The notes under the pieces: model-generated | What the model saw: only the letters and a program-made list of their open reading frames with translations | Databases searched by the model: none | What the model was told of the DNA's origin: nothing | DNA from: Giardia intestinalis | Lineage: Eukaryota | Direction: 5' to 3' (one strand) | Assembly (NCBI GenBank): GCA_000002435.2 | Contig: CM018793.1 | Length of the DNA: 64,000 nt | Part shown: positions 35,908-38,557 of the stretch, one piece after another | How positions within the stretch are numbered: position 1 is the stretch's first letter | How the letters are laid out: every line of letters starts with the position of its first letter | Program-made: the position numbers and the translations under genes

Positions 35908-36007
35908 CTTCGCGCCCTCGCGCCCGCACGTGCCCGTGGCGTAATTGGATAGCGCGCCTGACTACGGATCAGGAGGTTGCAGGTTCAAGTCCTGCCGGGT
36001 ACGCTTT
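35908..36007 (+). repeat. Duplicated 100-bp tRNA-Arg module, copy 2.
   Basis: Identical to 26915..27014 across the 22-nt leader, the tRNA and the trailing CTTT. Confidence 0.85.
35930..36003 (+). tRNA. tRNA-Arg, anticodon ACG (second copy).
   Basis: The 74-nt sequence is identical to the copy at 26937..27010. A TTT run follows. Confidence 0.9.
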
Positions 36008-36013
36008 ATCGAG

Positions 36014-38557
36014 ATGGCAGACGCCTGGTTTGCTGCGGCGCGCAAGGGCGACAGGGGGCGCGTCGAGCCTCAGCTATCCTCCTTTGCAGGCAGCAGAGAT
36101 TCCCGGGGACGCACTGCGCTCATGCACGCTGCAGAGTCGGGGGCAGTTGGGGTCATTTCCCTCCTTGTTCCAGAAGAGAAACTCATGGTCGATAACACAG
36201 ATAATTGCGCACTCTCACTAGCAATCTTAGCGGGAAACCTGGAGGCCGCGAAGGCCCTGGTTTATCACGAGTCTACCTTCCGTTATAAAGATGGCCGAGA
36301 CTGCCTCATGTTAGCCGCAGAAGTCGCGGATCTGGATATAGTCGCTCTCCTGGCACAACACGTTGAAAAGAATACAGATGCATACGGCCAAACGGCTCTT
36401 TCATTTGCCGTCCGTCGAGGGGATACCAAGATCATTAAGTATTTACTGCAGCGGTTTAGCTTTACAGAGCAAGAGCTTCTTAGCACTCTTCACAACTTCT
36501 CCGGGCCAAATTTTGTGGAAACCAGCAGCTTGATTTATCTGCAGAGTCGTCGCCTCAAATCCGAGCTTTGCTGCAACTGTCAAACGCTGACAACTAGAAT
36601 GCTGTCACTTGAGCAGGAGATCAGGAGGCTCCAGAACATTCTACAGACAGAACATGTGCAGAATAAAACATTGCATTCAAAACTTCAAGAGCTAGCAGAC
36701 AAGCTGGAATGCCCAAAGGACATTGTGTTTCAAAAACTGGACCAGATGCTATGTTATCTTCTCACTATCCCAGAGAGCCTGCTCAAGGTTCCCATGGAGC
36801 TTTTCGATCACGAGTGTTTCTCAACTAGAAGCTTAAAGGAGCTACCCTTACCCTCAATACAGGCGCTAGACCAATTAAATAAACACATTTTAAATGCAGT
36901 GGAAAAGTACAATCACCAAATTTTTATTCTCCGACAACAGATTGAAACACTCACAAACGAAAAAGACCTTCTTCGGAGGAAGCTCAGCAATTCAGAGCAT
37001 GCTCAGGAGAAACTAGCAGTTGTAATTAAAGCTAAAGAGCAGGAAATTGCAAAGGTTATTGATAAGCACAAGGAATTTAATATCCGGGTCTCTCTACAAG
37101 AAGATGAGCTAAGGAAAAGCAAAGACGCAATAGCTACCCTGACGAAACAGAATAATGAACTAGTACACCAGCTGGAGATATTAGCTTATGAAGATGCTAC
37201 AGTTACCAAAGACGGTATCACCCCGTTAATGAAAAGCATTATGCTGGGGGACTTTGACGCTGCTATGAGCTTTGTTAAGAGATATGCAGGAAGAAAGTCT
37301 GGCGACGGGTCGACAGCCCTACACCTGTTGTTGCAAGCGAAGCGTCTCTGTCCTAGTCCTGCGTCCGTTAAAGGCTATAGCTCGCTCCTGAGCAAACAGA
37401 AAGAAAAACAGCACGCTACTGGACGTATAGATATGCAGGTGTACACGCCTCTAGCGGACAGAGATACAGTCACATCCAATCAGCACCAAAAAGTGCATGC
37501 TCTGCAGTTCAAAGAGTTACCTACAGAAGATTGTCAAACAGTCATATCATCTCAGCCCCCCTGTATAGATGGTAGTGACACAGTCAGCTTAAGTAGCACA
37601 TTAGACCCATTTTTCAGTACATGTGCTCCGTTAAGGTTTATAGATTGCCAGCTGCAGATAGAGGTACTTATACCCTATTTTGACGCAATGATCACCGCAG
37701 AGTTAGAGCCTATGCTTTCCCCAGACGACATTACGGCGGTTTCTCTTTTCCGGCAACTTGCAGAGATAGAGGCTGATTTGCGAAATAAGAACAACGAGAC
37801 AGCTCTAGAGCTAGTACTAAACGATAAGAACATCTTCGCAATTGACATTCTTGCTCCCCACCAAGCACACATCACAACCTCTAAGGGGAACCTCCCCATA
37901 TTTGAGGCGATCAAAATGGCAGCGGACTATCCCCAAGAATGTCAAGACACTAATAGAGAGGAAAGAGCAAAGACTGCGACGGCATGCAGGATATTATTAC
38001 CGCACTCTGTTGGTCTTTGCAGTGACGAGGGTACCACACCACTGATGATGGCCGCACAGCAAAACGTTCAGGAAATCTCATCATTGCTAATGGAGTCTGA
38101 AGCACGAAAACAGAATCTTTATGGGGACACAGCCCTTATGATAGCCGTAGCGTGTGGTCATACCCAAATTGTGCAGGATCTAGCGCCACTGGAGGCGGGT
38201 ATTCTAAATAATGATGGAATTTCGGCCCTAATGTTGGCAATACGGCTGCAAAGGGAGGCAGAGCTAAGGATCCTACTACCGTACGAATTGACGATCCTCG
38301 ATAAACAGGACGAACAACCGCTCCTTACGGTACTTCATACACATAATGCTAGGCTCTCTTATCTTCTTATTGAGGAGCTCATGGTAAAGGTGAGAGCAGC
38401 GTTTGGCGCGGACTCGTCTGCTGAAGTTTCTCTTGACAAGATACAAGAGAATGTTCTGTCTTTTAAGTTTAACTCTGCAATCGCAAAGGCCATTAGTTGG
38501 AGCCATCACTGGCAGGCACTCCATTTGATAGGTAGTCACCCTACGACATCAGAATGA
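36014..38557 (+). CDS. Ankyrin-repeat and coiled-coil protein of the Giardia 'protein 21.1' type.
   Basis: The ATG lies 10 nt after the tRNA (MADAWFAAARKGD...). N-terminal ankyrin repeats: GRTALMHAAESGAVGVISLL, NCALSLAILAGNLEAAKAL and QTALSFAVRRGDTKIIKYLL. A central coiled coil. C-terminal ankyrin repeats: TPLMMAAQQNVQEISSLL, DTALMIAVACGHTQIVQDL and ISALMLAIRLQREAELRIL. The track ORF starts at an upstream TTG inside the tRNA. Confidence 0.85.
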   Translation: MADAWFAAARKGDRGRVEPQLSSFAGSRDSRGRTALMHAAESGAVGVISLLVPEEKLMVDNTDNCALSLAILAGNLEAAKALVYHESTFRYKDGRDCLMLAAEVADLDIVALLAQHVEKNTDAYGQTALSFAVRRGDTKIIKYLLQRFSFTEQELLSTLHNFSGPNFVETSSLIYLQSRRLKSELCCNCQTLTTRMLSLEQEIRRLQNILQTEHVQNKTLHSKLQELADKLECPKDIVFQKLDQMLCYLLTIPESLLKVPMELFDHECFSTRSLKELPLPSIQALDQLNKHILNAVEKYNHQIFILRQQIETLTNEKDLLRRKLSNSEHAQEKLAVVIKAKEQEIAKVIDKHKEFNIRVSLQEDELRKSKDAIATLTKQNNELVHQLEILAYEDATVTKDGITPLMKSIMLGDFDAAMSFVKRYAGRKSGDGSTALHLLLQAKRLCPSPASVKGYSSLLSKQKEKQHATGRIDMQVYTPLADRDTVTSNQHQKVHALQFKELPTEDCQTVISSQPPCIDGSDTVSLSSTLDPFFSTCAPLRFIDCQLQIEVLIPYFDAMITAELEPMLSPDDITAVSLFRQLAEIEADLRNKNNETALELVLNDKNIFAIDILAPHQAHITTSKGNLPIFEAIKMAADYPQECQDTNREERAKTATACRILLPHSVGLCSDEGTTPLMMAAQQNVQEISSLLMESEARKQNLYGDTALMIAVACGHTQIVQDLAPLEAGILNNDGISALMLAIRLQREAELRILLPYELTILDKQDEQPLLTVLHTHNARLSYLLIEELMVKVRAAFGADSSAEVSLDKIQENVLSFKFNSAIAKAISWSHHWQALHLIGSHPTTSE

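Follow-up and report, generated by a model that had tools for sequence, protein, structure and literature searches.

An ancestral tRNA-Arg(ACG) gene and its probable old local duplicate, each abutting the start codon of an unrelated protein gene in Giardia intestinalis

Pairs of eukaryotic nuclear tRNA genes under concerted evolution show identical paralogues, a short stretch of identical flank and lineage-specific changes that are shared by both copies. In other systems a tRNA adjoins the next gene and its excision could set the 5′ end of that neighbour, as in the tRNA punctuation of animal mitochondria and the nuclear tRNA–snoRNA or tRNA–mRNA dicistrons of plants. The A and B boxes of trypanosomatid companion tRNA genes are promoter elements for divergent U-snRNA and 7SL genes at a fixed distance. 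Within Giardia itself, dicistronic ncRNA–ORF precursors have been reported, in which a small RNA gene lies directly upstream of a same-strand ORF and spanning RNAs are detectable (Hudson et al. 2012, PMC3510501), together with a 12-nt 3′ processing motif, [TAC]C[CA]TT[TC]N[CTA]T[CTA]AA (PMC3510501). Lastly, the ‘B-mode’ sites of Giardia TBP have been described as C/T-rich tracts of low base stacking punctuated by isolated G (PMC12209930).

The window considered here is the whole 64,000-nt stretch of G. intestinalis DNA that was analysed (contig CM018793.1, assembly GCA_000002435.2). A repeat search of the window found that positions 26915–27014 and 35908–36007 form one 100-nt direct repeat of 100% identity with a spacing of 8993 nt, confirming the identity (100 of 100 positions) claimed in an earlier note made from the sequence alone. 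Both units, on the plus strand, consist of a 22-nt leader, CTTCGCGCCCTCGCGCCCGCAC (26915–26936 and 35908–35929), followed by a 74-nt tRNA-Arg(ACG) (26937–27010 for copy 1 and 35930–36003 for copy 2) and CTTT. With up to three mismatches permitted, the window still contains the 22-mer only at these two places, and none of 100 shuffles contained a match. Both tRNA genes were called by ARAGORN and by Rfam, with an RF00005 score of 64.1 bits (gathering score 29) over the full length of the model, as befits a tRNA cloverleaf. The consensus A box is about TRGCNNAGTGG and the consensus B box is GGTTCGANTCC; the corresponding internal boxes can be read as TGGCGTAATTGG at tRNA positions 8–19 and GGTTCAAGTCC in the T arm. 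The genes had been annotated previously, copy 1 as GL50803_00t0017 and copy 2 as GL50803_00t0016, and the 75-nt 5′ flank of copy 1 equals the one given for t0017 in PMC12209930 (File S6).

The trailer of copy 1, CTTTT (27011–27015, plus strand), is the sole A/T patch upstream of Qb-SNARE 2 (GL50803_17464, 167 aa, 27016–27519, plus strand), the ATG of which lies at 27016, 5 nt past the tRNA. Behind copy 2, the spacer CTTTATCGAG (36004–36013, plus strand) leads to the ATG at 36014 of ankyrin repeat protein 1, a Protein 21.1 family member of 847 aa (36014–38557, plus strand). Both proteins match G. intestinalis WB exactly, an assignment with which a VSP with a CRGKA terminus agrees, and they are unrelated to each other; the earlier observation that the second tRNA ends 10 nt before the start codon of an ankyrin gene with no relation to the SNARE gene was correct. 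On the other side of copy 2 lies a small conserved divergent ORF, GL50803_0060537 (100 aa, 35566–35866, minus strand), whose start codon (CAT on the plus strand) begins 66 nt upstream of the 5′ end of the tRNA. An older 204-aa SNARE model, starting from an ATG at 26905 and running through the tRNA, was rejected; in P15 the extension does not share the reading frame, and in assemblage B its ATG is missing, so the upstream stretch is not coding.

A terminator of at least four T directly downstream is not a regular part of the unit. TTTT follows copy 1 in WB and DH only, P15 copy 1 having TTTC, and copy 2 is followed by TTT in all lineages, as are both copies in assemblage B. Only TTT is also found after the tRNA-Arg and a tRNA-Val of G. 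muris and after the WB tRNA upstream of ThrRS. Of the Pol III factors, TBP and BRF have been found in Giardia, and TFIIIC, TFIIIA and the B′′ subunit have not (PMC3369914).

The two copies recur at orthologous positions in DH (A2), P15 (E), GS_B and a metagenome scaffold of assemblage B, and copy 2 was also found in two more divergent contigs (L014 and L015). G. muris has kept the SMC–dynein–fibrillarin–Qb-SNARE synteny and has a single tRNA-Arg(ACG), identical to copy 1 at 74 of 74 positions and located 24 nt upstream of the SNARE ATG; no tRNA-Arg(ACG) lies upstream of the G. muris SMC gene, the position occupied by copy 2. At the locus of a more distant SMC homologue (P0045/L017), neither synteny nor a tRNA was found. 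Because G. muris has copy 1 only, upstream of Qb-SNARE, copy 1 is ancestral to the genus and copy 2 is an old local duplicate. The duplicate would have arisen in the G. intestinalis lineage before the split of A, E and B, and it is probably older than the split of the lineages represented by L014 and L015.

Assemblage B preserves a trace of the event. There, the sequence behind copy 2 reads CTTT ATGCCCGCCCCCAAC TCTGAG ATGGCC, giving a protein that begins MPAPNSEMADAW; ATGCCCGCCCCCAAC, still in place behind copy 2, corresponds to the opening 15 nt of the SNARE ORF, and the copied SNARE ATG is the annotated ankyrin start. Since the duplicated segment included the SNARE start codon, the succession of tRNA, T-run and ATG at locus 2 was copied from locus 1, and the placing of a tRNA beside a start codon appears, from these alignments, to be inherited, neither mobile nor coincidental. 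That the arrangement reflects a duplicated cassette rather than coincidence had already been proposed, and the co-duplicated SNARE start still visible in assemblage B bears out the paralogy of the units. The companion statement that flanks outside the unit are unrelated holds for the WB genome; in assemblage B, homology extends 15–19 nt further 3′.

We propose that about 120 nt of DNA were duplicated locally and in the same orientation. The segment would have comprised some 22–27 nt of upstream flank, the tRNA with its CTTT trailer and the opening 15–19 nt of the SNARE ORF, including the start codon and the first four codons. It would have come to lie between the small divergent ORF and the ankyrin gene either by templated patch insertion or by a 9-kb tandem duplication with subsequent deletion. 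In assemblage B the copied ATG remains in use, so that the ankyrin protein begins MPAPNSE-MADA; in the A/E lineage a 15-nt deletion would have taken out the copied ATG, and CTTTAT in the WB spacer is a putative remnant of the co-duplicated SNARE start (CTTT ATG...). We infer the polarity of the 15-nt indel (deletion in A/E as against extended conversion in B) from mechanism and parsimony, rather than by outgroup comparison at locus 2. The locus departs from the known concerted tRNA pairs in that the tract also took the start codon and first codons of a neighbour, which assemblage B uses for an unrelated protein. MPAPNSE-MADA in B versus MADA in A/E represents a clean case of a start codon gained from the duplicated 5′ end of a neighbouring gene. 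For the account as a whole, including the origin, maintenance and downstream expression of the units, we estimate a probability of about 0.78.

The same evidence bears on two other explanations of the second copy. A mobile cassette had been suggested earlier, and a retroposed, SINE-like tRNA-derived unit that brings a promoter to new genes would account for the sharp ends of the repeat; in assemblage B the 3′ end coincides with the following T-run within the SNARE ORF (AACTTTG), where a Pol III transcript that had read through could have ended. However, the suggestion does not survive the genome-wide count of tRNA-Arg(ACG) genes that had been called for: tRNAscan gives exactly two in WB and two in GS, which argues against a multicopy mobile element, and the many dispersed copies typical of a SINE were not found. 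The position of the unit is fixed in every assemblage examined (A, A2, E and B). The only match to the 22-mer in a metagenome scan lay on a GC-rich, bacterial-looking contig without a tRNA and is a chance match, leaving the two in the window. No poly(A) tail, target-site duplication or flanking direct repeat was seen at the junctions of the nine copies inspected. Retroposition was rejected mainly on the location of copy 2, on the same strand and 9 kb off, without such hallmarks, a placement that retroposition into a 12-Mb genome would be very unlikely to produce, and we regard a mobile origin as very improbable. An assembly artefact, in the form of a collapsed or duplicated contig, has a negligible probability. 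Short-read Logan contigs do join the four flanks in every combination (copy 2 left flank to copy 1 right flank in L001/L019; copy 1 left to copy 2 right in L003 and L011), but mixed joins are expected from a k=31 de Bruijn graph over a 100-nt exact repeat. We considered these joins as structural variants or recombination and set them aside, as they are indistinguishable from path ambiguity over the repeat. Independent assemblies (DH, P15, GS_B and the metagenome scaffold) hold both copies, each with its own flanks, the tRNAscan counts agree, and the A2 genomes carry a SNP specific to copy 2. Because both copies occupy the same syntenic positions in A2, E and B, misassembly, part of the condition under which the earlier note would have withdrawn its proposal, is refuted.

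The two units have not evolved independently. Leader positions −13 to −1 are invariant at both loci in A and B, and both P15 copies carry one T to C change at −12. Paralogue identity reaches −22 in WB and −25 in DH, and the P15 and B copies diverge in the distal leader. The full leader is identical between WB and DH copies (22/22) and matches at 18–20 of 22 positions between WB and P15 or B; the value for WB and B (20/22) compares with 40/70 at 4-fold degenerate positions in the neighbouring SNARE gene (P = 7e-4). Concerted evolution is marked by lineage-specific states common to both copies, here the P15 change at −12, and by paralogues that are no less alike than orthologues; in this the pair resembles those known from other eukaryotic nuclei. 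Homogenisation is not continuous, as a private C to T change in the T stem of copy 2 was found in three independent A2 assemblies. Purifying selection would keep the tRNA sequence constant, and the flanks inside the unit probably stay alike through a combination of ectopic gene conversion and constraint on a GC-rich box.

Such a box precedes tRNA genes more widely, of which WB has 63 in all. In 21 other tRNA genes, mean GC content is 0.81 at −12 to −1 versus 0.41 at −40 to −23, and GCGC or CGCG occurs in 13 of 21 proximal bins versus 4 of 63 other bins (P = 5e-7). The proximal 12–13 nt or so of the leader are, on this sequence comparison, seemingly an instance of the GC-rich box that precedes most Giardia tRNA genes. 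The 22-mer had been put forward as an upstream Pol III element, and only half of that idea stands: the whole 22-mer is confined to assemblage A and does not recur at other tRNA genes, and its proximal portion is a generic GC box. A divergent ATG at −64 to −68 is found in 8 of 24 tRNA flanks, copy 2 among them. This fixed spacing between a tRNA and its divergent neighbour recalls the companion tRNA genes of trypanosomatids, although the Giardia neighbours are protein-coding and any dependence on the boxes is putative. The leader also resembles B-mode sites, being 73% pyrimidine with all five G isolated and containing CGCCCGC, a pattern discussed for the H2B promoter (PMC12209930); it differs in that the tract within the 22-mer spans only about 15 nt at three or fewer G interruptions. 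Because about 28% of all promoters meet the 22-nt B-mode criterion (PMC12209930), the match is not discriminating. A role for the leader in RNA structure is unsupported, as the leader and the unit fold like shuffled sequences: the leader forms only a 4-bp CGCG hairpin (z = −1.4, with 28 of 200 shuffles folding equally well) and the whole unit folds no better than its shuffles (z = −0.24).

Because the tRNAs end 4–10 nt before the ATG and Giardia 5′ UTRs are about 1–14 nt long, neither downstream gene has space for a separate promoter or AT-rich initiator, and the 5′ ends of the Qb-SNARE 2 and ankyrin mRNAs must, by this reasoning, be set by the tRNA module. Two contigs from RNA-seq runs SRR17933277 and SRR17933280 (L005 and L006) run from tRNA nucleotide 11 through the trailer into the ankyrin ORF; these are de Bruijn contigs, which carry neither abundance nor strand information and could include genomic DNA carry-over. 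Judging from contig extents, they end 4–28 nt upstream of the ATG of the convergent gene. Two further contigs (L019 and L020), from runs of unverified library type, join the tRNA to the SNARE ORF. The supplementary files of the TSS-seq study list neither downstream gene, and GL50803_17464 has no gene-level entry there. The chance that Pol II starts within or close to the T-rich trailer, using the body of the tRNA gene as promoter DNA, is a little under even. A tRNA–mRNA precursor cut by RNase Z is a more tentative possibility. Translation in Giardia favours capped mRNAs, and the RNase Z product would be uncapped, which weakens this route. A small RNA gene directly upstream of a same-strand ORF is also what the known Giardia dicistrons present, and the RNAs that seem to span both would be a further likeness; the difference lies in the 12-nt motif, which is missing here: CCTTYNHTHAA has three matches in the window, a chance level, with none near either tRNA and none in the spacers. 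RNase Z acting at the tRNA 3′ end would replace motif-directed cleavage. The likeness to tRNA punctuation is that of a tRNA adjoining the next gene; the difference is that the neighbour is a nuclear protein-coding gene of a protist.

Three further readings concern what the adjacency and the leader mean. Genome compaction alone could have brought together independent Pol III tRNA units and a minimal Pol II start in the trailer, with junction RNAs as noise and no coupling. Intergenic distances are short, with medians of 81 bp for G. intestinalis and 37 bp for G. muris; only about 21 nt, including an A-rich stretch, separate the end of a third tRNA from the ThrRS ATG that follows it; pervasive transcription and read-through have been documented in Giardia; and an AT-rich consensus is missing at many mapped transcription start sites. 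We nevertheless find compaction alone rather unlikely, as only five consecutive A/T bases lie upstream of either ATG and AT content at −40 to −11 is 0.40 for both genes, the lowest in the window (median 0.60). Moreover, the tRNA–SNARE adjacency has been kept from G. muris to G. intestinalis, and the annotated start in assemblage B is the copied ATG. At the other extreme, the module may be a portable ‘expression head’, a nuclear form of tRNA punctuation that gives mRNAs their 5′ ends, which we consider unlikely. The transcript would begin upstream of the tRNA, possibly at a bidirectional AT-rich initiator that also serves the divergent gene, some 60 nt distant, and would continue past the weak TTT tract into the ORF; the tRNA would then be cut out by RNase P and RNase Z, leaving an mRNA with the 4–10-nt leader that Giardia ribosomes require. 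Duplication of the module with its ATG would have passed this 5′ end to the unrelated ankyrin gene, and the GC box and the fixed divergent-start spacing of −66 would be parts of an undescribed, TFIIIC-independent tRNA promoter architecture. Finally, conservation of the leader could come partly from GC-biased gene conversion instead of function. The stronger claim, that duplication and GC-biased conversion alone conserved a leader with no function of its own, would fit its 82% GC content, the lineage-specific states common to both copies and its strong divergence in L015 and G. muris, where it is only loosely similar. This we judge to be quite unlikely, because single-copy tRNA genes of other isotypes also have a GC-rich box at −12 to −1 and the TCGCGCCCGC decamer of the leader recurs in the flank of a tRNA-His gene.

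A duplicated tRNA gene is ordinary in itself, and the usefulness of this one lies in its context; the type of feature is familiar, and some of its useful details are specific to Giardia. In this organism TFIIIC has not been detected, TBP fails to bind double-stranded TATA DNA, 5′ UTRs are minimal and ribosomes are reported to initiate without AUG scanning (PMC3610916). In this minimal setting of transcription and translation, two start codons 5 and 10 nt after a tRNA represent a natural test case, both for the sharing of DNA by Pol II and Pol III in a minimal eukaryote and for whether tRNA processing can make mRNA 5′ ends in the nucleus. The generic GC box and the fixed divergent-ATG spacing offer concrete candidate promoter features.

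The repeat is best explained by an old local duplication that took in the tRNA-Arg(ACG) gene, the box just 5′ of it, the trailer and the start codon of the neighbouring gene. Positions 26915-27014 and 35908-36007 form the single long exact direct repeat of the window (100/100 nt identical). A 74 nt tRNA-Arg(ACG) was called in each by ARAGORN and Rfam, copy 1 at 26937-27010 and copy 2 at 35930-36003, so that the unit comprises a 22 nt leader, the tRNA and CTTT. The leader occurs twice in the window, both times in the repeat, even with three mismatches allowed, and had zero matches in shuffled sequence. 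The next ATG lies at 27016 after copy 1 (spacer CTTTT) and at 36014 after copy 2 (spacer CTTTATCGAG), confirming the earlier note's description of identical tRNA-Arg modules that abut start codons.

The downstream proteins are exact matches to G. intestinalis WB Qb-SNARE 2 (GL50803_17464; copy 1) and Ankyrin repeat protein 1 (copy 2), and the minus strand upstream of copy 2 carries a 100 aa hypothetical gene, GL50803_0060537, and SMC4. An older WB SNARE model, XP_001708538.1 (204 aa), begins upstream at ATG 26905 (context AAAATG; current model start, 27016), with a reading frame that spans the leader and the whole tRNA and is continuous into Qb-SNARE 2; this upstream extension was rejected, as the frame is not kept in other assemblages. 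An ORF near copy 1 ends in CRGKA, the hallmark of Giardia variant surface proteins (VSPs). The terminus belongs to the second of two adjoining VSP-type cysteine-rich genes (23399-24898 and 24969-26672), which have in common a 98 nt segment (24777-24874 and 26566-26663; 88% identical) encoding the C-terminal transmembrane region.

The SMC-dynein-fibrillarin-QbSNARE block is retained in the outgroup species G. muris, in which a single tRNA-Arg(ACG), 74/74 identical to that of WB, lies 24 nt before the SNARE ATG; no tRNA was found upstream of the G. muris SMC gene, where an LRR gene lies 17 nt away. With the G. muris tRNA at the SNARE gene only, this comparison makes copy 1 the ancestral one and copy 2 a product of the G. 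intestinalis lineage. Two contigs of greater divergence, with SMC proteins 78% and 76% identical to that of WB (L014 and L015), both extend past the small ORF into copy 2. Assemblage B has CTTT ATGCCCGCCCCCAAC TCTGAG ATGGCC after copy 2; the stretch between CTTT and TCTGAG equals the opening 15 nt of the SNARE ORF, and the N-terminus of the B ankyrin protein is MPAPNSEMADAW. The same site reads CTTTAT-C-GAGATGG in assemblages A and E, where a net 15 nt deletion would have destroyed the copied ATG. Because B retains the SNARE start and A and E are shortened, the original unit would have run from about −22/−27 to about +20, roughly 120 nt, and locus 2 owes its ‘tRNA, T-run, ATG’ layout, with the co-copied SNARE start, to locus 1. 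Copy 2 lies 9 kb from copy 1, in the same orientation and exactly one block downstream, and neither a tail nor a target-site duplication was seen at copy 2. These features point to a local DNA event as the probable source of copy 2, which may have proceeded by templated patch insertion, or by 9 kb tandem duplication and subsequent deletion.

The earlier note had suggested a mobile or duplicated cassette, and had considered that the two copies might reflect misassembly. In all syntenic loci compared (DH, assemblage A2; P15, assemblage E; an assemblage-B metagenome scaffold; and GS_B), tRNA-Arg(ACG) is present at both orthologous positions, or at the sole position that the contig covers, and the repeat is therefore not an artefact. 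Short-read Logan contigs connect the four flanks in every combination, but a k=31 graph is expected to do this at a 100 nt exact repeat, and the joins are not read as rearrangement. By the tRNAscan tables of the GS genome paper, WB and GS have exactly two Arg-ACG genes each; the window copies are thus the entire WB complement, and the genome-wide count leaves no multicopy family. A metagenome scan for the 22-mer returned nothing beyond one chance match. With two genes in each genome, orthologous positions kept, and no tail or target-site duplication, the cassette is not mobile.

Among the Logan contigs, L001/L019, L002/L020, L003 and L011 link the left flank of one copy to the right flank of the other, most likely through de Bruijn path ambiguity; identical junctions are also predicted from duplication or deletion of the 9 kb interval via recombination between the copies. 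A Nextera adapter fragment stands at the start of L003.

The duplicated unit is maintained through selection and gene conversion. The tRNA is invariant across all lineages, including G. muris, with the sole exception of A2 copy 2, in which the 3′ strand of the T stem has T in place of C (CCTGC to CCTGT), giving a G-U wobble. The change is found in three independent assemblies (contigs L010, 9917-9990; L011, 305-378; and L012, 129-202) and is absent from DH copy 1, so the two tRNA genes are not always identical. Within the leader, counted upstream from the tRNA 5′ end, positions −13 to −1 are invariant in A and B, a T to C at −12 is common to both P15 copies, and the copies agree over the distal 7-9 nt in the A lineage only, a pattern that indicates gene conversion between them. 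The WB and B leaders are identical at 20/22 positions, versus 40/70 at 4-fold degenerate sites in the neighbouring SNARE gene (P = 7e-4), which points to constraint, or GC-biased conversion, as the likely cause. The L015 and G. muris leaders are just loosely similar, C-rich with CGC repeats, and the exact 22-mer is therefore an assemblage A feature. Elsewhere in WB, File S6 of PMC12209930 shows a near-identical 75 nt 5′ flank for t0010 and t0057 (annotated tRNA-Ser and tRNA-Ile), and identical flanks within the tRNA-Glu pair t0006/t0007 and the tRNA-Gln pair t0014/t0015; co-duplication of tRNA 5′ flanks is thus common in this genome.

The same supplementary file supplied the 75 nt upstream of WB genes, its copy 1 entry matching the window exactly; flanks of 22 further tRNA genes (21 distinct) were recovered, and Arg-ACG was left out of the statistics. 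Mean GC content of the 21 distinct flanks was 0.81 at −12 to −1, 0.47 at −22 to −13, 0.41 at −40 to −23 and 0.50 farther out. In 13/21 flanks the proximal 15 nt contain GCGC or CGCG, compared with 4/63 other 15 nt bins (P = 5e-7), and TCGCGCCCGC in the tRNA-His flank is the same decamer as in the Arg leader. Given this enrichment across the other flanks, the proposal that the 22-mer is an upstream Pol III element stands in part: its proximal half is an instance of a general GC box before tRNA genes, the exact 22-mer being limited to assemblage A. TFIIIC, TFIIIA and B″ are not detectable in Giardia (PMC3369914), and Giardia TBP binds single-stranded C/T-rich tracts interrupted by isolated G residues (PMC12209930). 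The GC box is a plausible candidate for an upstream or start-site-proximal promoter element.

Giardia 5′ UTRs are approximately 1-14 nt long (PMC3610916), and an A/T-rich initiator at the start site is usual in Giardia promoters (PMC3792122). A/T runs lie upstream of most long ORFs in the window. At −40 to −11 from the ATG, however, AT content is 0.40 for both tRNA-adjacent genes versus a window median of 0.60, and their upstream A/T amounts to no more than TTTTA or TTTAT before the ATG. We infer that both downstream genes must take their 5′ end from the module; in this weaker form the earlier promoter-cassette idea survives, shorn of mobility.

Two contigs (L005 and L006) from strand-specific RNA-seq, apparently without poly(A) selection (SRR17933277 and SRR17933280; bioRxiv 10.1101/2022.03.07.483299), have their start at tRNA nucleotide 11, from where they cross the trailer and enter the ankyrin ORF. 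They stop a computed 4-28 nt upstream of the convergent gene's ATG at 42780, so that their ends behave like transcript ends; at k = 31, the continuity needs RNAs that link the ORF to at least ~30 nt from the 3′ part of the tRNA. L019 and L020, which look like RNA contigs, likewise extend from the SMC 3′ UTR across the small ORF, the spacer, the leader and the tRNA and on into SNARE, to end ~10 nt past the fibrillarin ATG. Read-through or precursor RNAs therefore probably exist, and the translated mRNA could arise from them, or from a separate Pol II start in the trailer. Dicistronic ncRNA-ORF precursors are known in Giardia (PMC3510501); their 12 nt processing motif is absent at both tRNA/ORF units. 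The Giardia tRNA trailers inspected (window 27011-27015 and 36004-36007; contig L013 18256-18259 and 19118-19123; and the copy flanks in contigs L007 and L008) all have TTT, rarely TTTT, beginning 1-2 nt past the discriminator base. A canonical Pol III terminator has 4-5 T or more. The Pol III subunit C53 is reported absent from Giardia, and both this absence and the short T-runs would favour read-through. The interest of the two tRNA-adjacent ORFs lies mainly in the chance to test how Pol II and Pol III interact in a minimal eukaryote.

A third tRNA just upstream of a protein gene is found at the threonyl-tRNA synthetase (ThrRS) locus: the ‘Gp 5’ probe, −44/−5 of GL50803_0013998, reads GGTTCGAATCCCATAGCTGTCG then CTTTCGCCCCCAAAGAAA (File S2, PMC12209930) and is the 3′ part of a tRNA that ends ~21 nt before the ThrRS ATG, again with a CTTT trailer. 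The 15 kb Logan contig L004 (SRR10919358) begins at window position 35900, 30 nt before tRNA copy 2 and 8 nt left of the repeat, and continues through the tRNA into the ankyrin gene; its start could be the 5′ end of a precursor, if SRR10919358 is RNA-seq.

CATTT (the AAATG start of a divergent gene) lies at −64 to −68, counted from the tRNA 5′ end, in 8/24 tRNA flanks: Glu t0031, Ser t0056, Pro t0038, Gln t0018, Val t0063, His t0052, Lys t0025 and Arg copy 2. Of the 11 occurrences of CATTT, eight thus fall in this one 5 nt bin (P ~5e-6, corrected for bin choice). The divergent start at copy 2 is at 35864-35866; its CAT is at −66 in A, A2, E and B and at −68 in L015, a position kept though the spacer sequence has diverged (flanks in L007, L008, L009, L010 and L015). 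This geometry suggests a possible bidirectional promoter of fixed spacing, common to tRNA genes and divergent protein genes. AGTRAAY is the Giardia poly(A) signal, and AGTAAAC-type strings lie ~52-62 nt before Ser t0010, Ile t0057, Val t0028, Met t0001, Ser t0022 and Glu t0006. Together with the ATGs at −66, these strings suggest that neighbouring genes may be packed up to a protected zone of ~55-65 nt before tRNA genes.
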